Source of the DNA: Branchiostoma floridae
Taxonomy: Eukaryota
Reading direction: 5' to 3'
DNA: 64,000 nt
Assembly (NCBI RefSeq): GCF_015852565.1
Contig: NC_136191.1
Span: forward strand, 11,848,578 to 11,912,577
The translations under genes were made by a program, and so were the position numbers. Below, one piece after another: positions 40,401-53,620 of this stretch (the first letter of the stretch is position 1; each line of letters starts with the position of its first letter). A model generated the notes under the pieces. It was not told the origin of the DNA, made no database searches, and saw nothing but the letters and a program-made list of their open reading frames with translations.

Positions 40401-42785
40401 CTCTTCGCGTTGCACCTGGTTTCGAATGGCAGCTAGTGATGAATGGCGTCTGTGCCCTTGGGTAGCAGAGTACGGGTGGTGTCTGGGGCCTTGGTTGGTC
40501 TTGGATCATTCTTGCAAACTCTTTATCATGGCTTTATTAATCCAATCAAAATCAATCAAAATAAAATGTCGCATTAATCGAGTTTAAGACCTGCTTATGA
40601 GACTCGGATGCCCAGGAGTGTTTTAATGTTTCCTCGTACAAACTCCCTTTAATAGCAAAGAAATCTTTTTGTTTTCGAAATTTCACAGGGGCGCAGGCTC
40701 ACATTGATATTGGCGGATGCACAAATCACAGATCCTCTTGAAATGAAAGATAGTAGTATGCCCAAAAAATACAACAGAAGTCACATATATTCTGAATGAT
40801 ACAGTTCAAGTCCCAGGCGAGAAGACAATGGATGTTACATCCCAGACAGCTGTTCAGGAGTGCTGTACATTTGTTGATCCAACAAGACCCATACATACAC
40901 CACTACCTCATATATTACACTCCTGTCTGCGCCGTTATCTCCCAGTCCCTGTCTCTGTCACGGCCGCCATGCTCCCTGCAGAGATAAGTGCTTGTTTTCA
41001 CACAAGATAAACAGGTGGCTGACCCAGCATAAATGTTTGGCGCGACTGAAGGGTTTCTACTTCTTCCAATCTACACACTGGAGAGTATATTAGGGCTGCA
41101 GTGCGTTGTTAGGAATGGCAACAACTAAAGCAATATTAGCGACAATAATAAACGACAAGAAAACGTATACGACGATATGAATTAGCATTGCGATTGGTTT
41201 TGACTTCTCTGTTTGTGCAGCATAACTCAAGAAGCTGTGGGTGGATCTGTGTGATATTTGTTATGTAGCAAATGTTACGGTGGCAAATGAAGGACCATTT
41301 TGATTGAGGGCCCCTGACGCCTTCTCAAAGTACTGCAGCATAGCATTTAGTTTGTGTATCAACAATATAAGATTATATAATCCAAGCTACCGATGATGTA
41401 TGACACAAGTCGCATAACGTACGTCTTGAGCTCTTGTCCGCTGAAAAGGTAAATCACCCAAAGAAATAACATGTCTGCACAGTTTGTGCATGTACCGAAC
41501 TTGAGAGGAAATATGTTCCTGCTTACCCTTTCAATTGACACTTAGTAATATGTGATGAGGCACATATGAGAGGGTTATGCGTTGTAATTATATACAGAAC
41601 ACAGGCGGACTGTTGAAAGACACATAACTCTTTTAACAGGCCATGTTTCAGCAGCCAAATGTTTGATCTCAGAGTTTACATAACCCAAGTTTAAAAGCCT
41701 GGCTAGTCCCCAAACTTAGCAGACGTAAGTTGTGAGGAGACCGCATGAAGTGTTATTTCTGTGTAAGTTATCCTTTGTTAACATTGACCACAGACTGTCT
41801 GGCAATTTGAAGTAGAAAACATCCGGCTGACGAGTCCAACCCTGTTTAATGTTTAAGTAACAGTCCGATCAATCTAAGTGGGTTTTAAATCTACTTTCAC
41901 TTGTTTGCTTTTCTACTGAGTAAGGCAGGCACGGTTTAACGGTTCATTGTGATTTGCTATAATGGATGTGTTGCCTGATTTGTGAACGTTGGGTCAAATG
42001 TGACTATCTTTTCTTTACAAAGATTAGATTCATAATATTATAGTGGTTGTATAATATAATGCATAATGAAGTTGAGAACACACTGACTACTATTATGTGT
42101 AACAGTTATGCATAGTGACAAATTCTTTTAGGTGCCTCTTCTTCCTATGGTTGCCCAACCTGAAAACGACAGCCTATTCAGCAGCCATTTCTGCATCAGA
42201 TTCAGCACTGAGATTCAGCCCCTAGCATCACGACAGAAGCACAAACCAGCCGCCAAGCCTACAGCTTAGAAAAGTGCTATCGTAGTAACGTTAACTTTTT
42301 TTCCCTTATTTTTTCGTTTTCAGTAACTGGTGCGCCTACACAGTGTCCAAGCAGGTGTCCTGTAAGGTTAAGAATGGCTCGGCAGTCTACAAACAAGCCT
42401 ACTACATGCCGGGGTGCTCCGTCTGGAAACCTGGCAACTGTTACAGGTAGGCTGGGGAGTATCGTGTGCGGGGCATGTGGCATGGGCAAAGTCAAGACGT
42501 CACTGTGAGCCCTCTCACGGTTAGAGATCTGAACGCATGTGCAGCGACAGGAATTCTAGGTGATATGTCAAAGGTAAAGGCCATAAAAAAGAAAACAGCC
42601 CTTGTCCTGACCATTGTTTCGATTTGCATAACAACGTCCAGGTGGGTTTTGTTTTCTTTTTCAGGGCCTTTACCTTTGATGTATTACCTAGAATTCCTGT
42701 CGTCGCACATACGTTCTGATCTCTGTGAGAGGGCTTATTGTCAGGATTTATGGTTGCTAATACCGTTGTAGTTATATGGTGATGG

Positions 42786-42884
<99 letters not shown>

Positions 42885-44879
42885 TGCTGATGATGATGAT
42901 GATGATGATGATGACGATGATGATGATGATGATGACGATGATGTTGATGATGATGATATAGAGGTGGTCACTAGCACAGATTTGACTATGTACTAGTGAT
43001 GGTCGTGTTCACTATCTCTGTCAGGTACCGGCGGACAGTGCGTCCCACCTACCGAGTGGCGTACAAGACCGTCACGGCCATGGAGTGGAGGTGCTGTCCC
43101 GGCTTCCAGGGAGCAACCTGTCAGGACAGTACGTAAACTAGAGTAGTCTCGTTGTAGTCTCCACCAGATTGACTACGCTTGCTATTGTAGGGACAATAAT
43201 TTGACAGGTGAGTTTTGCTACCAGAGGAGTTGGCTGACCGCTCAGCCAACTTTCCGGAGGGGAAACATTTTAACCTTAGCATGGACTGACTATCCAGATT
43301 CTTTTGCGGAATTCTACGATCACCGTACCCCAGTAAGAAAGTGGGGCTAGTCTCATTAGTTCAGTGCCCGGCTTTAATATTTTCCCATTATGTGCTAGAG
43401 GTAACAACGATTAGTCAAAGTACAATGATAATTGTACGCGACAAGGAATCTCCAAGATGAGATCTACCGGGTTGATGAAGAGACAAAGTGCGTCTCAAAA
43501 GCTTCCCAAGCTACGAACTGTAGTTGTGTGTATTTTGTTAAAAATTTGGTCATACTTCCACAGCTTGCTTCAACTGCACTCGTCTGACAGCTCTAGAGAA
43601 GCGGATGAGTGCTCTGGAGAACACAGTAAGTCTTAGCATTTCACTCACTTTCTCTTTGCGATAACTGTAGAATATGTTTTATTTTCATGTATTTGAACTT
43701 TGATCATGACTTAATTCTCCAACCTCAGTTAGCTACCATTACATGAAGCTAGTCTGCGATTTTCTGTGGTACAGAATAGACCAAACGCAACTATTGAAAT
43801 TTTACAGTTTTGTGAATCTCCTAGTCCATATATAATATTCTTATTGCAGGGTCTACCGGTTAGTAGTGACACGAAAGATATGCCAGTCGGCCCACCCCCT
43901 GTCACAAATGGCAAGAAAGCCGACTCGGAGGTGTTATCGACAGGACCTACAGGGCCCGTGGGTCCCCGTGGCCCCCCGGGTCACCCCGGGATTCCCGGGC
44001 GAGCGGGTCCCGAGGGCCCACGGGGAAGGCCCGGGGCACAAGGACCTACCGGGCCTCAAGGGCCTCCAGGACAACCTGGCTTACGGGGAGAAATAGGCTT
44101 ACCTGGGGAACAGGGTGAGTTAGCGAATTATATCAATTTGGTGAGTTGTTGTTGTAGGTACGTAGCAAAAGTTATGAAATAGATGACGAGGATTAGACAA
44201 GTTATGTAGGGGTCAACTGCGCCGACTCCCTTGTAATTTTCTTAAATAAACTTGCATATAACTGTTACATACAATTTACGTTCTGGATCTTTTTTGTAGG
44301 CGAACCAGGCATGCCTGGGACGCCAGGGTTCACCATGGAGGGTTTGCCAGAAGGTATGCCTGACATGTCGGCACTACTCCGCAAGGTGGATCTCCTAGCG
44401 AACAGAGTATCCTTATTGGAGGAACTCATGGCAGTGACGTCAGAAGGTATGAAAAAGGAATAATCTCGTCAGTGACTATGACTTGCCTATAACGTAATTT
44501 TTATGTGTAATTTTCCTGTACTTAACATGACTCGAAGAGCACACGTGTCAATAATTATAACTTCTTACAAAGAATACTCATAATTACCTGTCGTTCCACA
44601 GCGGGTGGATTTCTGCCCGGAGGAGGACCATCTTTACGCCCAGGACCGGGCACCTCACCTAAACCTGACGTCTCGTCCCCCGACTCGTCCCCAGGACCCG
44701 ATCTCGTCCCCAGGCCCCGTCCTGACACGTCACCAACTCCTGCTGAGTTACCAGAACCTGACGTCATCAGTCCTGACGGCAGACCTGGCTCTACCATATA
44801 CCCAGGGTTCCCCGGGGCTGACTATGAAGGGTCAGCAGACCACAATCTACCATTCCTGTTTGAGAGTGAGACTGTATGA
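34459..44879 (+). CDS. EMI-domain-containing short collagen (EMID1/Emu1 or COL26A1-like), 7 exons
   Basis: Exon 1, 34459-34589: signal peptide [27 protein letters not shown], donor GTAAGA. Exon 2, 42324-42446: [41 protein letters not shown] (EMI domain N-terminal half). Exon 3, 43024-43127: [33 protein letters not shown] (EMI C-terminal half with the WRCCPG motif). Exon 4, 43564-43625: [21 protein letters not shown]. Exon 5, 43850-44114: Gly-X-Y run [57 protein letters not shown]. Exon 6, 44300-44447: [11 protein letters not shown] plus coiled segment. Exon 7, 44602-44879: Pro/Ser-rich tail, stop TGA at 44877-44879. Splice phases are consistent across all junctions. Confidence 0.8.
35810..35960. 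repeat. Near-perfect roughly 150-bp palindrome (hairpin with roughly 60-bp arms and roughly 20-bp loop)
   Basis: gttaatgccccgccccgaggtgtatatggtgagataatccctggtcaggtgcgataaccaccgaataaaccacc [gagtgagcgtagcgaacgag] ggtggtttatgaggtggttatcgcacctgaccagggattatctcaccatatacaccgagg aaaa ggcggggcattaac. The arms are exact reverse complements apart from a 4-nt bulge. It lies in intron 1 of the EMI-collagen gene. Confidence 0.85.
36355..36405. repeat. Second short perfect hairpin (17-bp arms, 3-nt loop)
   Basis: aaaagtggtcggttatt cta aataaccgaccactttt, about 500 bp downstream of the large palindrome. Confidence 0.8.
42779..42957. repeat. (GAT)n microsatellite, about 60 units with a few GAC and GCT interruptions
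   Basis: Directly visible. It lies in intron 2 of the EMI-collagen gene, between the two EMI-domain exons. The poly-Ser and poly-Met ORFs at 42741-42977 are artefacts. Confidence 0.95.
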
Positions 44880-45193
44880 CGTACCACTGCGTGGACGTTA
44901 CGTAACGGTTGAAACAGTTACGTCTCTGCGTGACACAGATACATCTTTATTGTACACAAAACACTTTTAGAGTAGAGTTATGACATTTCTAGATACCACA
45001 GTAGTAAAATGTGTATCACTTGTCAAAGATATAGATACAAGAACACTACATTTAAGACGACGAGGCGTGTCAAGTAGATAGAATTCTATTCAAACTTACA
45101 GCGTTAAGGTGTTTTTGCCGGGGCGCCGAAGGCGCCCGGCTTTGTCCCCGGTTTAATGGTTCGTCCTTGGATGGGTCTGCTATGGTCGCAAAA

Positions 45194-45306
45194 TGTACCG
45201 TGCGTTTTTACGACAATTCTCAGCCCTTCTCAGCCCTTCAAATAAACGCAATGTACCGTGCGTTTTTACGACAATTCTCAGCCCTTCTTAGCCCTTCAAA
45301 TAAACG
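45194..45306. repeat. Roughly 57-bp direct repeat x 2
   Basis: aatgtaccgtgcgtttttacgacaattctcagcccttct(c/t)agcccttcaaataaacg occurs twice in tandem. Confidence 0.8.
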
Positions 45307-45488
45307 TTGTAAGAATACTGTTTATCCATGACCTCTACTCGTACAGAAAACATTGCAGCGCTCATTAGCAAAGTCTAGGAAAGGAAAATGTTTCTTGATT
45401 TGCAGTAAAACACTGGTCATGTAACATTTGAGGAGTTGTCGTTAAATCGCACGGTTCATTTTGCGATAGCGTTGACGGGTCCGGGTAT

Positions 45489-45688
45489 TTAGCGGAATAA
45501 CCCGGAATAACCCGGAATAACCCGGAATAACCTTAATAAAGGATGAAAGCTACCGAAATACAGTGTGCTTTGATAAGTTAAGATCGCAGAATGCAATATT
45601 TTGGCATAAAATAATGTATATATGGCCATGGGAACAAGAAATATTACGGTTATTCCGGGTTATTCCGGGTCATTTCGGGTTATTCCGG
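45489..45688. repeat. Small foldback: (CGGAATAAC)n microsatellite arms in inverted orientation
   Basis: 45489-45530 (gaataacccggaataacccggaataacccggaataacc) versus 45645-45688 (ggttattccgggttattccgggtcatttcgggttattccgg), separated by about 110 bp. Confidence 0.7.
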
Positions 45689-46602
45689 TAAATACCCTCA
45701 CGGGCGTTGACGGTGCGGAGGAGGTGAGATTTTTATCGTACAGAAATTGGTACAGTTTGTAAAGTTATCTTTCTGGAATTCGGATGTATTAAAATATAAC
45801 ATTACATTCTAAGGCGTAGTGTCATGTGAGTAAAATGAGCACGACATTTGACGAAAGATTTTGTGGAGGGTATACAGTCAAGTTTATTGTGCAACGATTG
45901 GAACAGTTTACGTGCGGGTGGGAGGGGGGCGTGCGTCTATATATGCAGCTGCAGGAGGTCCTGCAGGACATTTTCGATCGTAAGAGTAACGTACAATTTG
46001 AAAAGATAGTGATCATGAATTCGGACACATTGAAACATATTTCCAAGGAACGGTATATAGTTTTTTTAGTAAAACCAGTGTGTGGGGATTGACGAGAATT
46101 TAGATAGTTTAATGGTGCACTGTGCTTGAGCCGATGCGAGGCATTATGCAGGGCATTTTTGATTGTAAAAATATCGTACAAGTTGAAAAGATGGATCGGA
46201 TTCTAATACATTAAAACATACATTTCCAAAGAATAGTAGAAAACAACGGATTGTAGCTAACTGTTAAACAATCAGCAAAGCAGTTGGCAAGATGTCACAC
46301 CTGAACTTTTGTAGATTTTTGCTTTTTGTTGGTACTAGTAAGATGTTATGTGATCAAGACAATATTTTCTTTCTGTTTCAGTGACGCCTTAGACTGTTCT
46401 CTGCTATATATACAAGTGACACAGTAATATACAGAAACTTACAGCTAGCAAAAGTCTGTACTCAATAAGATTTTACACAGTACACATTTATACTTCTTCT
46501 GCTGAAATCTACGCATTACATTTTGCATCCAACCAAAGAGGTTTGAAAGAGAGTCCTTGATCCAACCAAATTAGACCTTGAGACCTATTAACAGATCATT
46601 GA

Positions 46603-46912
46603 TCACTGTGCATTTTGCACATACCAGACTCAATCGTGCCACTGAGCACTGCATTTTGCACACACCAGACCAATTGTGCCACTGAGCACTGTGCATTTTG
46701 CACACACCAGACCTATCGTGCCATTGAGCACTGTGCATTTTGCACACACCAGACCTATCGTGCCATTGAGCACTGTGCATTTTGCACACACCAGACCAAT
46801 CGTGCCATTGAGCACTGTGCATTTTGCACACACCAGACCAATCGTGCCATTGAGCACTGTGCATTTTGCACACACCAGACTCAATCGTGCCACTGAGCAC
46901 TGTGCATTGTGC
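46603..46912. repeat. 48-bp minisatellite, about 6.5 units
   Basis: The unit cactgtgcattttgcacacaccagacc(a/t)atcgtgccattgag is repeated head-to-tail. The ORFs 46571-47029, 46615-46896, 46630-46914 and 46676-46918 are artefacts of it. It ends 38 bp upstream of the ATG of the 385-aa ORF. Confidence 0.9.
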
Positions 46913-46949
46913 AAATAAAGTCAAGCAAAGAACACATATATTGTGAACA

Positions 46950-48107
46950 ATGTGTGAATCTATTTTATCGGGAAAATACCACCAAGGTGACATCATTTTC
47001 AGTGGAGATAATAGAGGCAAACAATGCACTGCAAATGCTTTAATGGCAGTTGTTAACCACAGTACTTGCAGACAAGCAATTACCTGGACAAGTACAGACC
47101 TTGATGGTGTACTTTTTCAAGGAGATGCACTATACACCTACATAAAACCATCACTAAGATCTGGTGTGGAGTTCCTCTCCGTTGATGATATTCCAGACTA
47201 TTTGCAACTTTACAACAATACTGTACGTGTATCAATAAAAGAGTCTTACACTGGAGACATATTTGCCACAGAAGCAGTCTATCCTTATTACACCTTAAAG
47301 AAAGCCCTAGAAGCAGCATTTGCTGAATCCAACACTTGTCTTTTCATAACAGCACATGGAATAACTGGTTCAACAGTAGCATTGTTGCACGCTGATAACA
47401 AGTATTTTGTTTATGACTCACATGCCAGAAGTCCCATAACAGCATTGCCAGATAGCCATGGCACTTCTACTTTAAGCATGCACAGTTCAAACAGCAATCT
47501 AGTTTCATTCTTGCAACAACTTAACTGGAACACAACATGCAATTTTGAGGTTGTCCCAGTACAAGCAGAAAATGTTTTCTTATCAGTTGAACCTACTGGT
47601 ATACACATTATCAATCTGACTAGCAATGTTTCTTCTATGATTGAGTCAGAAAACTGCTTTCAAGTTCAACAACAACACACATACACCTTGGTTAAACCAG
47701 AGTTTGTATCTACGAAAGAGAACCTACAACAACCAAACACAGCATTTCCATTTGCACCACATTGTAACCAAAGTACTGGGAAAAACATTGTGCCATGCAC
47801 CACAAGCAAACATCCAAGTGCTATGCCAGAGAACAGGAATGAAGGCCTCTTGAATCAATTAGTAATGTCACCAAATGCAGCATCAAATTTAAATGATAAA
47901 AAAGTGCAAGGTCTTGCAATCCAAAGCGCAATATGCAAGGACAAACAAGAAAAACAAACCTATCAACAGAAGACAGAGAGTCTTGCAGAACAAAGAACAT
48001 CATACAAAGCAAAGAAAGCAAATGAGACCTGTGAGCAAAAAGCAGCACAGCAAAGAGCATCATATAAAGCGAACAAAGGTTTCCAGCCAACTTCCCATAG
48101 ATTTTAG
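46950..48107 (+). CDS. Intronless 385-aa ORF of uncertain function; N-terminal half has a Cys...His arrangement compatible with a papain-fold thiol peptidase (OTU/UCH-like?), C-terminal half is Q/K/A-rich low complexity
   Basis: Longest uninterrupted ORF in the window. Candidate catalytic residues: Cys in GDNRGKQCTANALMAVVNH and His in KYFVYDSHARS, about 130 aa downstream. No introns. It is immediately preceded by a 48-bp minisatellite (46603-46912). A 45-bp internal fragment (about 47521-47565) is re-duplicated just downstream (about 48135-48180), which suggests a multi-copy or mobile origin. The family assignment is unverified. Confidence 0.35.
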   Translation: MCESILSGKYHQGDIIFSGDNRGKQCTANALMAVVNHSTCRQAITWTSTDLDGVLFQGDALYTYIKPSLRSGVEFLSVDDIPDYLQLYNNTVRVSIKESYTGDIFATEAVYPYYTLKKALEAAFAESNTCLFITAHGITGSTVALLHADNKYFVYDSHARSPITALPDSHGTSTLSMHSSNSNLVSFLQQLNWNTTCNFEVVPVQAENVFLSVEPTGIHIINLTSNVSSMIESENCFQVQQQHTYTLVKPEFVSTKENLQQPNTAFPFAPHCNQSTGKNIVPCTTSKHPSAMPENRNEGLLNQLVMSPNAASNLNDKKVQGLAIQSAICKDKQEKQTYQQKTESLAEQRTSYKAKKANETCEQKAAQQRASYKANKGFQPTSHRF

Positions 48108-49004
48108 ATATAAACTTCTAGTTTAATAATGATGCACATTTTACTGGAACACAACATGAAATTTTGAGGTAGTCCTTCCAAATGCGCCCCGGCCAGCTTT
48201 TTTTAAAAGCTTTCTTGTTTAATCACAAGATGGATGTCGTGCATTTAAACCTTCCTTAGAGCATTTGAGATGTGTTATCTTAGATATCAGTACAAAGTCC
48301 AGAGCATTCCTCACACTTCTTGTCTTTCAACTGAGCATTTTGAAATATCAACAAGAATAAGATATCATCTAGGGCTACAATTAAGTGAAGTTGTCATTAT
48401 CTTATTGGATATTAAACTTTTATTTGCAAATATATATATGCTACTATTGTAGTCTCGATCGCGAGTACATGCAGTGTGGGTTTATGTTACAATGTTCAGT
48501 TTATAATGTCACATACTTAAGCAGATTGTATGTCCAGTTTCCAACGACAAAATAAACAGCAGGCACTCTTGAAGTTTTGGTGGTTTTCCAGAAGTCTAAA
48601 TATGGCAATGTTGCCATAATTCTGCAAAACAACCTGCTATCAATTACTTCTAAACTTCAGGAGATGACAGGTGATGATAAAATGTGAGAAACGTTTCATT
48701 CTAATCGTCCTCAGTGACTCTGTATACAGTGTAATGTGTGCTTATACTGGGAGCTTTAGAATGCCAATTGTGTTTGATGTACTTTCTCTATATATGGCAC
48801 GTTCTGGCATCGTACTCAAAAATTTATAAAAATAGAATGTCACTTTCCGAACCAAAAACACCCAGAAGTGTATTTCAAGCGTAGTATGCCTTGTTTCTTG
48901 GACGAACCGGGGCAGAAATAAATTCCTGGTCACCTTATTGTCACAGTAGTATTGATCAACCATTGGGATTGTGGACTATCATTAGTACCAATTCCTGACA
49001 CAGT

Positions 49005-51247
49005 CTAAGTCCCGGGTACCCTTCTCCTGGAGACGACATACTCGATGTAGCTGATCATACCGTCGTTGTTTGTATCGTCTTCAGACAGGATCTTGTCCAC
49101 AAGACCTGGTGAGAAAATCCCAATAGTGTAAGCAACACTGGTCTAGTCTTCTCGTCATTACCTAGTAATGGTAGGAGTGAGACATACCCGAAGATGAGTA
49201 TACAACAGTTCTCATTCGGTTTTCTCTAACCATTTGTGGAATTCTATTGCCTAGCTGTGTACTTTTATTTTTGTGTCTTATACATGTATCTATCAACTTT
49301 TCGTTAGATATTGGGCAGTGCTGATTGGCACTGCTAGGTGTCGTTGCAGTTTAAAGGATGTGGTCTCAAACATGACTAAGGCTGTATCACCGCTCATCAC
49401 AATTCATGACAGGGGTAAATTTTCTATCGATCGAAACGGCATCTTGATCTAGCCAGTACAATGCCCTGAGGAAGGTAGAAGAAGTTCTATCCAAAAGTTG
49501 GCAGGTAGGTGATATTGGTTGTGTACAAATAACCCTTTTAAGGCTCAACCTCTCACCAACATGATGAAAGTATTCATGGAGATATAACGCTAGTTCACCT
49601 TTATTCGCGGGGTGACCTTTATCCGTTGTCTTTAAAAACAGCACATTTAGGAGTATTAAGTCTGCGGACTGTGGTTTCAAATGTGCAATATTTAAAAATG
49701 TTCCAATATGAAACCACCGTCCGTCGACTTCATATCCCTAAATACATTTTTTTTACAAACAACGGGTATAGGTCACCCTCGGATAAAGGTGAACCAGCGT
49801 TACCTGTGAATACGGTCATCCTCTCCTGGTGTTCCTGGTTGGTCCGTTCTCTTTCCTGTTCAGCAGTCTCTCCCTCAGGAGCCGGGCGCCCGAAACTGTC
49901 GTAGTCGGAATTATGGGATACCGCCGCCATGATCTCTAACCCGTCCAGATGGTGGTCTTTGTCGCTATCGTGAGATCTGACGTACATATATGATAAAAGG
50001 GCAATAAAACTGAAATAGGGTTTCAGAGGTGTTGTCAAAAAGAACAATCACAAGCCTTACACAGGTGTGCTCGGATTACCTGGCTATCGAGAGACCTGCT
50101 TTGACCTTAAGGGGAAAGGAATAATTGCAAACTTACAAACGCTGCAGAAATATCAATACCACGTGTATCGATATATTATTGACTATTAACTAGCTTTCAC
50201 ATTTGCACGAATATGTTAATATTAGGCAACTAATTGGATACTTCCTGGCTGTTTTTGTCCAAGAAAAGAGCATGCAAAAACATTCACAGACATTCTGTTC
50301 ATTCTTACATGCGGTGTCGTACCTTACTGTAGAGTAGCTCTTATCACAAGATATGTTTTGACACATTTTGAATGTACTTCACTACATATGAATGTCATTC
50401 GTACAAAAATAATGATTCAGAAGTAAATTCATACTTGAAGAAATGGAACTCTCTCTCCGCTGGGGTCATGCTGTTGATATCCTCTTCAGACAGCTCCTTG
50501 ACGTGTTCCTTTAGATGCCTGGGAAATATATATGAAAGTAGAGATATATATTTGAGTGTGTTTATGTACATAAGAGAGAAACAAATCGCCTGATTGCAGT
50601 ATCTTTAATAACCGCTAGATAGCGTGGTTCCGCATCGGCAATGATGTGTGCTTGGGTGGTACCTTAATGTTTAGTAACCCACGATATGCTATATCTAAAT
50701 TGATATAGGATCTAATTACCGAAGTTTCTCCGTTGCTTACGTTATCACATCTCTATGATGACCAGGTGTTCGTTTTCCCACACATGGAAAAGTACTTCAT
50801 GTTTTGTTTGCCCTGCAGTCGGCCCAGTTTATGTAACGTTACAGTAGGAAAACAAAACACAGCGAATCAGCTGCTACCACGTAGAACTTGGAAACATCAG
50901 TTAGCATTACTCACAACTGTTAGTTAATAGTATTCCTGAGTACGTATACCCTGAATTTTTTATGTCCATGACTAGCAACAAACATTGTTCTTCGTTACAT
51001 TTTGATGCGCACTGATAGGCACATACGTACTGACAACCCTTGCACGATGAAATATGTGTGACATTCCCATATGTTAGATAAACGCCGTTTCTATATCATA
51101 CACCTTACCCCTTGTCCTGAAGCATTTGTGCGTCGCGAAATTTGTTGTCGTCGTACCCCTCGGGAGACAAGCAACGCGTCTGAGGGACCAGGAGCAGGAC
51201 CATGGCCCCGACCACAGCCGGGAGAACAGCCGACGACATTGCCACAC
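49005..51247 (-). CDS. MCFD2-like EF-hand protein (multiple coagulation factor deficiency 2 homologue), tandem copy 1 of 4
   Basis: Four exons on the minus strand. 51108-51247: signal peptide MAGSVAMSSAVLPAVVGAMVLLLVPQTRC...FRDAQMLQDK. 50436-50518: GHLKEHVKELSEEDINSMTPAEREFHFFK. 49797-49966: SHDSDKDHHLDGLEIMAAVSH plus a copy-specific insertion NSDYDSFGRPAPEGETAEQERERTNQEHQERMTVFTG. 49005-49115: GLVDKILSEDDTNNDGMISYIEYVVSRRRVPGT then stop; second EF-hand loop DDTNNDGMISYIE. Compare vertebrate MCFD2: [49 protein letters not shown]...DDDKNNDGYIDYAEF. Confidence 0.8.
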
Positions 51248-51830: not shown

Positions 51831-53620
51831 TAAAACTCTCCTATTGGTTCAGCTGGTCATTCAGGTCCTTTTGTCGCTGCTGTTGTGAGGCTTGTACATC
51901 TTTTTCATGTCTGCGTCTTGATATGACGTACTCGACGTAGCTCATCATGCCGTCATCGTCGGTGTCATCCTGCTCCAGGATCCTGTCCACCATGCCTTAA
52001 GACGAAGATAAATATTGTAAAATACTGTTTATCTTTTTGTTTGTGATTTACACGTAGCACCTTTGTGATATCATGAGCTTGTTGGATGTTATTTTTCATT
52101 AAGTTTTCCTCTTGCATAACTATGTTAAAACATATATTGAATACACGGAGAAAAATCTTGTTATCCATAGAACAGTACGATAGGTCGTGACGTCACATGA
52201 CAGGCCGTAAATGCTAAAATGTATTTTAACTTCTTGCTACCTTTCGTCAAAGATGGCAATCATTCTGATATTTTCCTACCTTACTAAGACAGTGACATAG
52301 GAGCAGAAATGCTCTTTAGGGGGAATCCTTATATCATAGCTACTCTGGATATCATGGGGGGATACCCGCTTAGTCACGTGCACGTTTGGGACCTCCTTAC
52401 TGCAGCGCCACCTAGGATTTTGTTTCCAGTCATGACATACGGCAGACCTGTTAGAAAGTTGAGTCTCTCCTGATGTTCTCGGTACCTCCTGGCTCGTGTC
52501 TGTTCGGGCGTCTCGTGTTCGGGCACGGGCTGTTCGGCCGGCTCTCTGTGGTAGTGCTGGTGATCAATGGCCGCCAGGATCTCTAAACCGTCCAGCTTCA
52601 AGTCGTGATCAGTGTCGTGAGATCTTCACGTGAAGGAAGGGTTGAAAAAGTCAGTGAACGACGAAAAAAAGGAAAACTTGGGAATAGAAAAAATTGACAA
52701 CAAACGAAGACAAAAAAGGCCTGGCCTTGAACGTATCGTTAGACGCTACAAGCTAGTAACGTACTTGAAGAAATGGAACTCCAGTTCCTCGGGTGACATC
52801 TGGTTGATCTGTTCCTGGGTCAGCTCCTGTACGTGTTCCTTCAGATGACTGCATGAAAATAACATTGCAAACGTATATAAGACCTGGTAACTCAACTGGT
52901 ATGGAGGGCTTTAGTAAAGTTGACGGCCGGGCTTTAGTAAAGTTGACGGCCGTCAACTTTACTAAAGCCGTATGGAGCATATGAAATGACGTTCTGTTAC
53001 GTGTTTTGTTTGCATTTGATATTCAAACGCACAAGAGGGTGGTTGAGAGGCCCAGCTGCTCCAAGTCACACGCCTATATGAGGCTCGAAAAACCTTTGTT
53101 GAGAGGTACATTTTCAGGATAGTCAAGTCTGTGAAACATTTCCTAATCGCTGTAGCAAATGTTACTCACCAACTTGATAATATGAAAATGTCATTATTTG
53201 AGGTCAGGCAAATGTTGGTTTACTTATCTCCAATCAATATGTTTTAAAAGAACAAAGGTCAGGATAAAAGTACAAATGTTTCCGTTATGTGGCCTTGTAT
53301 GTTACGGGCACCATATGTAAAATTGCAATTGAATCTTCTTGAGAAGATGGTGGAAATATTAGACTAAGTGTATTCCTCGGGTAATTAAATCAATCAAAGC
53401 GTGACTAAGTTAGTGACGTTAAAGAATAAGTCTTGTTGTGAAAATTGAATATCCATATGCTACCAGATTATGCCATATGGCTTGTATAAACACTGTTCGA
53501 CAAGAGAACTTTACCTTTTGTCCTGCACCATGGACGGATCCCGAAACCTGTTCTCATTATCAGTACCGAACACGTTATGCACCAGAAGTAGACTCACCCA
53601 GACTGCAAGACAAGACCACA
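51831..53620 (-). CDS. MCFD2-like EF-hand protein, tandem copy 2 of 4
   Basis: Exons 53514-53620 (MAGLWSCLAVWVSLLLVHNVFG...FRDPSMVQDK), 52765-52848 (SHLKEHVQELTQEQINQMSPEELEFHFFK), 52448-52623 (SHDTDHDLKLDGLEILAAIDHQHYHREPAEQPVPEHETPEQTRARRYREHQERLNFLTG), 51831-51995 (GMVDRILEQDDTDDDGMMSYVEYVISRRRHEKDVQASQQQRQKDLNDQLNQ then stop). GT-AG at all junctions. Confidence 0.8.

Follow-up and report, generated by a model that had tools for sequence, protein, structure and literature searches.

An intact VTD (peptidase C76) reading frame in a recent, probably Helentron-derived insertion in amphioxus

The window analysed here is a 64 kb stretch of amphioxus DNA, read on its forward strand. An open reading frame (ORF) on the + strand at 46950..48107 (stop included) runs for 385 codons from ATG to TAG, or 386 codons when measured from stop to stop. 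The next-longest open frame in the 64 kb has 181 codons and the longest across 100 shuffles has 217; frames as long as the 385-codon ORF are expected by chance at about 2e-7. The uninterrupted frame reported in the preliminary description is thus real and far longer than chance frames, and the intron-rich character ascribed there to the other genes fits the flanking ones, an EMI/collagen gene (+ strand) and tandem MCFD2-like genes (- strand). A single-sequence word-indexed protein search with the 385-aa product returned no matches, and an exact-product look-up gave no record.

The ORF is carried by a lineage-specific insertion of about 3.1 kb (45117..48217, + strand) that is absent from three reference genomes. 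Positions 42937-45116 of the window were aligned to 18215-16045 of the orthologous B. floridae reference locus (L006) and positions 48211-49143 to 16048-15091, with 87-95% identity across the locus. Since these flanks are nearly contiguous in L006, the segment between them is absent from the reference. The insertion is also absent at the orthologous sites of B. lanceolatum (L004) and B. belcheri (L005), and an empty site is seen in each of the three genomes. In the reference, the empty site consists of a T10 run, ...AATGTG-TTTTTTTTTT-AAATCATAAG. In the window the left side reads ...AAGGTG-TTTTT and then GCCGGGG, the T5 tract (45112..45116, unstranded) being the left part of the oligo-T target, and TTT flanks the insert on the right. 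The 3' boundary of the insert is TTCTTG (48212-48217), followed by host sequence TTTAATCAC. Because the T residues on both sides total fewer than the reference run, there is no net target duplication; an oligo-T target may leave room for a T duplication of 3-5 bp. When the insert was compared by BLAST with the remainder of the window and with the orthologous loci of the three references (about 130 kb of amphioxus sequence), no other copy was found. As it is missing at the orthologous site of three references, the insertion is unfixed and recent, recent enough to be missing from the B. floridae reference assembly. Absence of the ORF from related individuals or species had been named in the preliminary description as evidence against its own proposal. 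The ORF is absent from these relatives, which argues against a host gene and fits the mobile-element origin that was among the options listed there.

Residues 1-215 (46950..47594, + strand) form a catalytic domain of the viral tegument-like deubiquitinase (VTD) / peptidase C76 family, as assigned from PF04843, the structure 8ADD, the invariant residues and an AlphaFold2 (AF2) model. A Pfam scan of the 385-aa ORF at E <= 10 gave PF04843 (Herpes_teg_N) with 30.3 bits (gathering score 25; E = 4e-7), one spurious low-complexity match and nothing else. The PF04843 match spans ORF residues 11-161, corresponding to profile positions 3-162 of 183. A phmmer search of the PDB returned 8ADD, the VTD of a zebrafish Helitron, at E = 1.1e-12. 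The active site of VTDs has an unusual Asp-x-His, and the triad is in the 'mirror-image' arrangement typical of the family. The Cys and His noted earlier at a spacing of about 130 residues are Cys26, which sits in the motif GKQCTANALMAV, and His158, in FVYDSHARS; they are 132 residues apart, and Cys26 and Asp156-x-His158 align with the QC and DSH of 8ADD. The VTD family is defined by a conserved Q-C motif and an invariant Asp-x-His motif, and the catalytic residues Cys322, Asp451 and His453 of DrT1-VTD2 have been proven by mutation (Erven et al., 2022; PMC9741609). By this alignment Cys26 (codon 47025-47027) is the predicted nucleophile and His158 (47421-47423) a predicted catalytic residue, as the preliminary description had picked them, together with Asp156 (47415-47417; all + strand). 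917 homologues of the ORF were found. Q12, Q25, C26, G58, Y62, D156 and H158 are kept in all 71 aligned homologues (71/71) and in the ORF, and 41 of 41 sequences are invariant at these seven positions and at G171; the amphioxus ORF retains all eight invariant family residues. The domain is predicted to be an active deubiquitinase.

For structural comparison an alignment-based AF2 model of the ORF (pLDDT 96.3, pTM 0.92) was used and a single-sequence AlphaFold model (pLDDT 32) was discarded. Foldseek superposed the model on 8ADD with a TM score of 0.85 (2.2 A, E = 1e-17), on herpesvirus M48 (2J7Q) with 0.76-0.79, on Wc-VTD1 (8ADC) with 0.62 and on AvrPphB with 0.49. No OTU, UCH or C1 chain was found with an E value better than 0.1. 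The domain therefore has a papain-like alpha-beta-alpha fold that is superposable on solved VTDs. The profile and structure searches proposed earlier (Pfam; AlphaFold and Foldseek) thus support a papain-fold thiol peptidase in the N-terminal half, and it is the assignment to the OTU, UCH or C1 types that does not hold, PF04843 being what the Pfam scan gave. Nor is the peptidase family new, since VTD / peptidase C76 has already been described (PF04843; Erven et al., 2022; PMC9741609).

The name of the Pfam family, which is taken from the herpesvirus tegument protein, the weak match of the ORF to the herpesvirus large tegument protein 6PPB (KSHV/HHV; E = 0.059) and the structural match to M48 would fit an endogenous fragment of a herpes-like virus, namely a portion from the N-terminus of its large tegument protein. 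The herpesvirus USP domain (M48 2J7Q, UL36, BPLF1) shares the fold and the triad layout of the ORF, and the triad histidine bears the number 158 in both M48 and the amphioxus ORF, but it is only about 15% identical to the ORF and heads a capsid-associated protein of more than 2000 residues. An equivalent of His141 of M48, a second histidine close to the active site, is missing from the Helitron VTD structure (PMC9741609). The ORF resembles the VTDs of Helitrons (8ADD, E = 1e-12, TM 0.85) far more than those of herpesviruses (6PPB, E = 0.06), its nearest relatives adjoin Rep/PIF1 genes, and the insert is just 3.1 kb long with transposon-type ends and no further viral gene. A viral derivation, which the preliminary description had also offered, is consequently very improbable.

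The C-terminal tail, residues 216-385 (47595..48104, + strand), is without a significant homologue. Its 170 codons are open beyond chance (none of 20000 shuffles). The Q/K/A-rich composition earlier attributed to the whole C-terminal half applies to the last 75 residues (311-385; 47880-48104), of which 44% are K, Q or A and which contain a loose repeat, ...Q(Q/R)(R/T)(A/T)SYKA(K/N)K; residues 216-310 are instead rich in N, T, S, Q and P. The homologue search with the tail gave low-complexity alignments at E of about 5 only, an alignment to a Priapulus protein (P0007; E = 0.04) was below significance and the Pfam scan of the tail gave no credible match. Comparable K/Q-rich stretches lie between VTD and DUF6570 in two Helentron relatives (L002 and L003), that of L003 including a repeat motif; the likeness to the tail is one of resemblance only.

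The ends of the insert bear repeats. The 5' end is formed by the 10 bp GCCGGGGCGC (45117..45126, + strand), a (sub)terminal repeat that recurs inverted at 48184..48193 (- strand), set back by 24 bp from the 3' boundary. The exact 10-mer is found at these two sites only in the 64 kb; with one mismatch permitted, four matches were observed against 0.38 expected. The inverted repeat, recognised once the cross-species alignment had set the insert boundaries, measures 10 bp without mismatches or 12 bp if one is allowed, which is short for a Helentron (typically 12-15 bp). A search for long terminal repeats with a 14-nt minimum had given a 16-nt inverted pair (45003/48130), which was judged to be due to chance. 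The 5' repeat is embedded in the palindrome CCGGGGCGCC-GAA-GGCGCCCGG (45118-45139), which folds as DNA at -12.8 kcal/mol (z = -2.25). At the other end the palindrome AGCTTTT-TTT-AAAAGCT (48195..48211, + strand), an AT-rich perfect 7-bp stem with a 3-nt loop, ends 6 bp before the end of the insert. Since its folding energy is no better than that of shuffles (z = -0.42), this 3' palindrome is weak evidence on its own.

Between the ends lies a block of tandem and inverted repeats (45186..45697, unstranded) that comprises a 58-bp tandem in two copies (45192-45306), an inverted pair (45186-45219 / 45433-45466) and (CGGAATAACC)4, which with its complement forms 56-nt arms (45483-45538 / 45642-45697). 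The minisatellite described earlier as having a 48-bp period and ending 38 bp upstream of the ORF is present, but its period is 42 bp (7.5 copies, 94% matches; 46597..46913, unstranded) and it ends 36 bp before the ATG. The tandem arrays of the element are thus 42 bp x 7.5, 58 bp x 2 and 10 bp x 4. Past the stop there is a copy of a piece of the ORF, as had been observed, although with 36 bp it is shorter than the roughly 45 bp first given: 48140..48175 matches 47521..47556 (both + strand), a segment coding for the last part of the VTD domain (LNWNTTCNFEVV), at 33 of 36 positions. The copy begins 32 bp past the ORF stop and stops 8 bp short of the 3' inverted repeat, and it may be filler at an internal-deletion junction or a remnant of a second VTD unit. 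The remaining ORFs of the insert gave no Pfam match, and an Rfam scan of 44800-48500 gave none either.

Within the Helitrons, which are rolling-circle transposons, Helentrons form the branch that encodes an endonuclease. Their hallmarks were scored by the definitions in PMC4067079 and PMC7492417, in which tandem repeats are characteristic of Helentron/HINE elements. The inverted repeat, the 3' palindrome, the oligo-T target and the internal tandem repeats all fit these definitions, and a mobile-element origin of the ORF is borne out by the Helentron-type ends and the empty site in three references. The same data were weighed against two alternatives, a DNA transposon of another class (one with TIRs, for example hAT, PIF/Harbinger or Mutator) and a nested composite, either of which would have captured part of a Helentron gene. 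Such an element would likewise have an inverted repeat common to both ends, a short T duplication at the target is possible and the 5' 1.5 kb holds MITE-like inverted repeats that are potentially nested insertions. The repeat is, however, asymmetric: it forms the very terminus on the 5' side, but on the 3' side it lies 24 bp inward with the palindrome behind it, which is the layout of a Helentron/HINE and not of a cut-and-paste element. The oligo-T target shows no net duplication, the ORF has the orientation (5' to 3') and position expected for Helentrons, and searches of the window and of the insert ORFs found no transposase remnant. We regard a TIR or composite element as improbable.

An intronless ORF amid an intron-rich region, together with the empty single-sequence word-indexed search, would fit a retrogene, processed from a host gene with several exons, or else a peptidase of a new family. 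There is no 3' poly-A tract, the ends being inverted repeats, with a 3' hairpin, in an oligo-T target, and no parent gene was found among the 1.8 billion representative proteins searched; as to a new family, a Pfam model, solved structures and the 917 homologues already exist. Both proposals are refuted by PF04843, the 8ADD match, the homologues, Foldseek and the end repeats, and we give them practically no weight.

Autonomous Helentrons carry the VTD either at the N-terminus of the Rep/helicase/endonuclease protein or immediately upstream of that protein. Among the relatives of the ORF, one protein (P0003) combines VTD, OTU, DUF6570, Helitron_like_N and PIF1, and two Mytilus loci (L001 and L003) and an ENA locus (L002) have a VTD ORF of about 300-360 residues on the same strand as the Rep/helicase genes, 1.2-2.8 kb upstream of DUF6570/Helitron_like_N/PIF1; L001 additionally encodes Exo_endo_phos (AP endonuclease). 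The Mytilus galloprovincialis proteins of L001 and L003 (P0151 and P0152, 'Peptidase C76 domain-containing') are VTD ORFs of about 300-350 residues on the 5' side of the element, as in amphioxus, and are likewise preceded immediately by tandem repeats (in L001, arrays of 39 bp x 12.7 and 27 bp x 8.6 directly upstream of the VTD ORF) and followed by a K/Q-rich repeat region; their identity to the amphioxus ORF reaches 34%. They retain DUF6570, Helitron_like_N, PIF1, an OTU-like motif and, in L001, Exo_endo_phos, whereas the amphioxus element has none of these. A tblastn search with 150 homologues and the Rep/Hel/APE products of L001 and L002 gave nothing in the window outside 46905-47700, and remnants of DUF6570 or OTU were not found by tblastn in the 64 kb. 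As Rep, PIF1-like helicase and AP endonuclease are missing from the window, the element was classed as a non-autonomous derivative.

The closest protein relative of the ORF is about 33% identical, and no orthologue above about 33% identity was found among 1.8 billion representative proteins. The best relative being so distant, the databases do not contain the parent family. The top homologues are patchily spread over fish, beetles, a priapulid, a coral, a chiton and mussels; no amphioxus protein is among them. The Helitron/Helentron VTDs (DrT1-VTD2, 8ADD; PMC9741609) share with the ORF the Pfam family, the Q-C and Asp-x-His motifs, the fold of the model (TM 0.85) and the type of carrier, a Helentron-type rolling-circle element, but are only 23-33% identical to it and sit in a RepHel polyprotein, whereas the amphioxus VTD is encoded by the only ORF that a deletion derivative has kept. 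The amphioxus host is a cephalochordate, and neither amphioxus nor cephalochordates are named in the accessible portions of Erven et al. (2022) and its supplements (PMC9741609).

Taken with the HINE / DINE-1 elements (Thomas et al., 2014, PMC4067079; Cg_HINE, PMC7492417), the amphioxus insert has in common a subterminal inverted repeat whose 5' copy is a palindrome, a further palindrome beyond the 3' copy, central tandem repeats, an oligo-T site without evident target-site duplication and an origin by internal deletion. It differs in that its repeat is 10-12 bp against 12-15 bp and its 3' structures lie nearer the end, and HINEs are described as non-coding whereas the amphioxus element keeps a complete 385-codon ORF.

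The ORF is thus very probably the sole surviving gene of a non-autonomous, internally deleted Helentron of about 3.1 kb with a VTD deubiquitinase domain. A Helentron derivative would have landed, in the genome of a Branchiostoma floridae-like amphioxus, in the oligo-T run between the EMI/collagen gene and the tandem MCFD2-like genes. The deletion would have removed everything from DUF6570 through Rep, the PIF1 helicase and the AP endonuclease. The ORF stop would lie about 30 bp before the presumed junction, marked by the 36-bp copy of upstream ORF sequence, and about 40 bp of the 3' terminus, with the inverted repeat and the hairpin, would have been left. The element would be mobile only with Rep/Hel provided in trans. 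Helentron VTD domains cleave K48-type ubiquitin chains, and their proposed role is to shield transposition proteins against proteasomal degradation.

An intact 385-codon ORF with all invariant residues would also suit purifying selection, and the ORF could then be a host gene for a deubiquitinase, either domesticated or stand-alone, in which a transposon VTD was co-opted and is expressed for a host function. This would be in keeping with the full integrity of the ORF and its eight retained residues, the 170-codon tail open beyond chance and the lack of Rep/Hel nearby. Known domesticated VTDs include Drosophila ms(3)76Ca and nematode VTD genes. VTD domestication is documented repeatedly, with male-germline expression (Erven et al., 2022; PMC9741609). 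Against this, the entire 3.1 kb segment is missing at the orthologous site of all three reference genomes, the transposon ends are still present and the 1.8 billion representative proteins include no orthologue above 33% identity. As the insertion is young, the intact ORF is sufficiently explained without a host function, and we infer that it is intact through this youth and not through host selection; a domesticated or stand-alone host gene is improbable. Also improbable is that the derivative, though stripped of its transposition genes, is no dead fragment but a 'DUB-only' satellite, kept and spread through an enzyme that would act in trans for autonomous Helentrons or against ubiquitin-based host silencing, or else an early, polymorphic domestication. 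If true, the latter variant would be a step towards the VTDs of fly and nematode male germlines, here in a chordate.

We take the ORF for a young gene of a mobile element and not for a new peptidase of the host, and an apparent orphan peptidase is struck from the novelties: its family was described in 2022 and its carrier is of a known transposon type. With the Helentron assignment, a VTD-carrying Helentron is documented in a cephalochordate, a lineage that the accessible portions of the family-defining paper do not list, and a non-autonomous derivative with an intact deubiquitinase ORF is brought to light. The cleanly bounded presence/absence insertion could be used to mark where Helentrons were recently active in amphioxus. 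Should derivatives that still encode the enzyme prove numerous or expressed, they would offer natural material on the role of the transposon deubiquitinase.

The region around the open reading frame at 46950–48107 (+ strand) was compared with the orthologous loci of B. lanceolatum (L004), B. belcheri (L005) and the B. floridae reference (L006). The window is 87–95% identical to L006 across 22 kb and only about 70–80% identical to L004 and L005, which points to B. floridae, or a species very close to it, as the source. The alignment is interrupted at one common place in all three comparisons. Window positions 42937–45116 correspond to L006 18215–16045 and positions 48211–49143 to L006 16048–15091, and the ~3.1 kb between these aligned flanks has no counterpart in L006; in B. 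lanceolatum and B. belcheri just 60–100 bp separate the flanks. The empty site in L006 reads ...AATGTG-T10-AAATCATAAG; in the window the left junction (marked by a slash) is ...AAGGTG-T5 / GCCGGGGCGCC... and the right junction ...AAAAGCTTTCTTG / TTTAATCACAAG. The ORF, the minisatellite beside it and a 36 bp self-derived fragment all lie inside one insertion, 45117–48217, which interrupts an oligo-T run and is either polymorphic or of very recent origin. Since the insertion is missing from the B. floridae reference genome, its youth suffices to explain the intact ORF and selection at the host level is not required.

The host genes of this region are an EMI-domain/collagen gene on the + strand, with collagen-triplet exons downstream of an EMI exon (..WRCCPGFQG..; 42975–44900, ending near 44.9 kb), and, on the − strand (~49–58 kb), a tandem array of four MCFD2-like EF-hand genes (MCFD2, multiple coagulation factor deficiency 2). 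The former is the 3′ part of an EMID1/collagen XXVI-like gene, convergent with the MCFD2 array; EMI and Collagen are annotated at all three reference loci. The MCFD2-like exons recur at ~49.0–50.6, 51.8–52.9, 54.2–55.4 and 57.0–57.9 kb, and the array is also found in B. lanceolatum, B. belcheri and B. floridae (3–5 annotated copies). A peptide assembled from one copy matches Branchiostoma proteins, with up to 93% identity to B. lanceolatum MCFD2. A long GAT/ATC trinucleotide array (42770–42960), poly-Asp in one frame, lies directly 5′ of the EMI exon, and window 42614–42937 has no aligned counterpart in the B. floridae reference. More breaks in the alignment to L006 occur inside the MCFD2 array (49143–49299, 49586–49801 and 52751–52970) and point to further haplotype differences in the form of indels or small insertions.

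The 10-mer GCCGGGGCGC has exactly two copies in the 64 kb, inverted and one at each end of the insert (0.38 matches expected by chance with one mismatch allowed). The 5′ copy (45117–45126, + strand) starts at the first base after the T-run, and the 3′ copy (48184–48193, − strand) lies 24 bp inside the insert end; the repeat is perfect over 10 bp and reaches 12 bp with one mismatch. The 5′ repeat belongs to the palindrome CCGGGGCGCC-GAA-GGCGCCCGG (−12.8 kcal/mol, z = −2.25). At the 3′ end the palindrome AGCTTTT-TTT-AAAAGCT (48195–48211), perfect over 7 bp, is followed by TTCTTG; its hairpin energy alone is unremarkable. The asymmetric placement of the inverted repeat at the two ends argues against the insert being a cut-and-paste TIR element. 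Four features define Helentrons, the endonuclease-encoding branch of the Helitrons, together with the non-autonomous derivatives called HINEs (among them DINE-1): subterminal inverted repeats that are short, commonly palindromic and closer to the 5′ end (a few bases) than to the 3′ end; a palindrome separating the 3′ repeat from the 3′ terminus; TT or T-rich insertion sites with Ts at the boundaries; and frequent internal tandem repeats (Thomas et al., 2014; PMC4067079). Vojvoda Zeljko et al. (2020; PMC7492417) further list oligo-T targets that are not duplicated on insertion and satellite-like arrays in the centre of the element. The insert has each of these structural hallmarks of Helentrons/HINEs, with a somewhat shorter repeat. 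It also contains two MITE-like hairpins, one with 34 nt arms (45186–45219/45433–45466) enclosing a 58 bp tandem duplication and one with 56 nt arms (45483–45538/45642–45697) formed by (CGGAATAACC)4 and its complement; these may be either native Helentron leader or nested small elements.

The ORF runs from ATG to TAG over 385 codons (386 codons stop to stop), with an in-frame TGA one codon upstream of the ATG. The second-longest open frame in the window has 181 codons (all six frames), the longest frame across 100 window shuffles did not exceed 217 codons, and base composition predicts ~2e-7 frames of the ORF's length. Taken alone, the C-terminal 170 codons are also open beyond chance (0/20000 shuffles); for this tail (residues 216–385) no significant homologue and no Pfam family was found. 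The preliminary description called the whole C-terminal half Q/K/A-rich; such a stretch exists and is limited to the last ~75 residues. The tandem array (46597–46913; 7.5 copies), which stops 36 bp 5′ of the ATG, has a unit of 42 bp rather than the 48 bp reported earlier. The self-derived fragment past the stop is present at 48140–48175, at a length of 36 bp versus the ~45 bp claimed; it is identical to 47521–47556 at 33 of 36 positions, begins 32 bp past the stop and ends 8 bp before the 3′ inverted repeat.

The sole credible Pfam match of the ORF is PF04843 (Herpes_teg_N, peptidase C76), with 30.3 bits over residues 11–161 (gathering score 25). The top PDB sequence match is 8ADD (E=1.1e-12, residues 8–175), followed weakly by the herpesvirus large tegument protein 6PPB (E=0.059). 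8ADD is the structure of a Helitron-encoded viral tegument-like deubiquitinase (VTD) domain from zebrafish, DrT1-VTD2 (Erven et al., 2022; PMC9741609). The VTD family is defined by a papain-like fold and an invariant Asp-x-His motif, which puts the triad histidine on the side opposite to that in classical papain-fold enzymes; the DrT1-VTD2 triad Cys322/Asp451/His453 was proven by mutagenesis (PMC9741609). In the HMMER alignment, GKQC26TANAL and YD156SH158ARS of the ORF are aligned to these three residues. Among 1.84 billion representative proteins, searched exhaustively with HMMER, there were 917 homologues at E<=1e-3 (best 3.4e-51), nearly all matching residues ~4–210 only. All 71 domains of one alignment and all 41 of another share Q12, Q25, C26, G58, Y62, D156, H158 and G171, as does the ORF, whose single departure at positions conserved at >=90% is Ala165 for Gly, with a one-residue insertion close by. 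The cysteine and histidine singled out in the preliminary description (C26 and H158) are thus the counterparts of proven triad residues.

An AlphaFold2 model of the VTD domain, built with the homologue alignment, reached pLDDT 96.3 and pTM 0.92. Foldseek against the PDB placed 8ADD first (E=1e-17, TM 0.85, 2.2 Å), bearing out the papain-fold class proposed earlier; the runners-up were the cytomegalovirus M48 deubiquitinase 2J7Q (TM 0.76–0.79), bacterial Wc-VTD1 8ADC (TM 0.62) and AvrPphB (TM 0.49), the same set as reported for 8ADD itself. The ORF is a member of the VTD/C76 family on all testable criteria. Assignment to OTU, UCH or C1, the candidates first put forward, was rejected because PF04843 is the sole credible Pfam match and 8ADD the top match in both sequence and structure; the suggested new peptidase family is the previously described C76/VTD.

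Among the top homologues, P0003 (pipefish, 2849 aa) combines VTD, OTU, DUF6570, Helitron_like_N and PIF1 within one chain, and P0004 has VTD with DUF6570. The only named proteins from the profile search were from Mytilus ('Peptidase C76 domain-containing protein'). At two M. galloprovincialis loci (L001 and L003) and an ENA locus (L002), a 300–360 aa VTD ORF precedes DUF6570, Helitron_like_N and PIF1 in the same orientation, 1.2–2.8 kb 5′ of them; in L001 these domains have Exo_endo_phos, the AP-endonuclease domain characteristic of Helentrons, on their 3′ side. L001 carries arrays of 39 bp (×12.7) and 27 bp (×8.6) immediately 5′ of its VTD ORF and more tandem arrays (periods ~53–56 bp) 3′ of it. 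Translation of the stretches past the VTD gives K/Q-rich peptides in L002 and L003, with a recurring ...KQAS(I/V)xKYK... motif in L003. The order tandem array, VTD, K/Q-rich stretch is common to these loci and the window; between the K/Q-rich parts of the window and of L002/L003 there is resemblance only. In the mussel Helentrons (L001 11000–13900, L003 10600–12300) an OTU-like motif, ..NVWGTELEI(L/I)ACADLLKTDIYT.., is additionally encoded between VTD and DUF6570, so that these elements carry two different deubiquitinase folds; annotation breaks them into separate 'genes'. In P0080 (1275 aa) the VTD is fused to a DUF7869 region and not to Helitron domains, so VTDs may also travel on other kinds of element.

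A tblastn search with the 150 best homologues and the Rep, helicase and endonuclease products of L001/L002 gave no match in the window outside 46905–47700. The VTD ORF therefore stands alone in the window and, lacking Rep/Hel/APE, the element is non-autonomous. Most economically, the insert would be an internally deleted Helentron that kept its 5′ end with the repeat-rich leader and 42 bp array, its first ORF (VTD plus part of the basic linker) and ~40 bp of its 3′ terminus, and that would have lost all from DUF6570 through the endonuclease. The 36 bp copy of the VTD's last codons sits at the presumed deletion junction and may be filler templated during break repair or by template switching. 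Alternatively, it might be what remains of another VTD unit in tandem, since tandem units occur in P0001 (three) and DrT1 (two).

If expressed, the ORF product is predicted to have thiol deubiquitinase activity. The Helitron VTDs of zebrafish cleave ubiquitin chains of the K48 type, and Erven et al. (2022; PMC9741609) suggest that they keep the proteasome from degrading transposition proteins. The VTD family, its association with transposons and HINE-type derivatives are already published. The present element adds a cephalochordate host, not named by Erven et al. (PMC9741609) or in the supplements covered, and a complete deubiquitinase ORF kept in a type of derivative that is as a rule described as non-coding.
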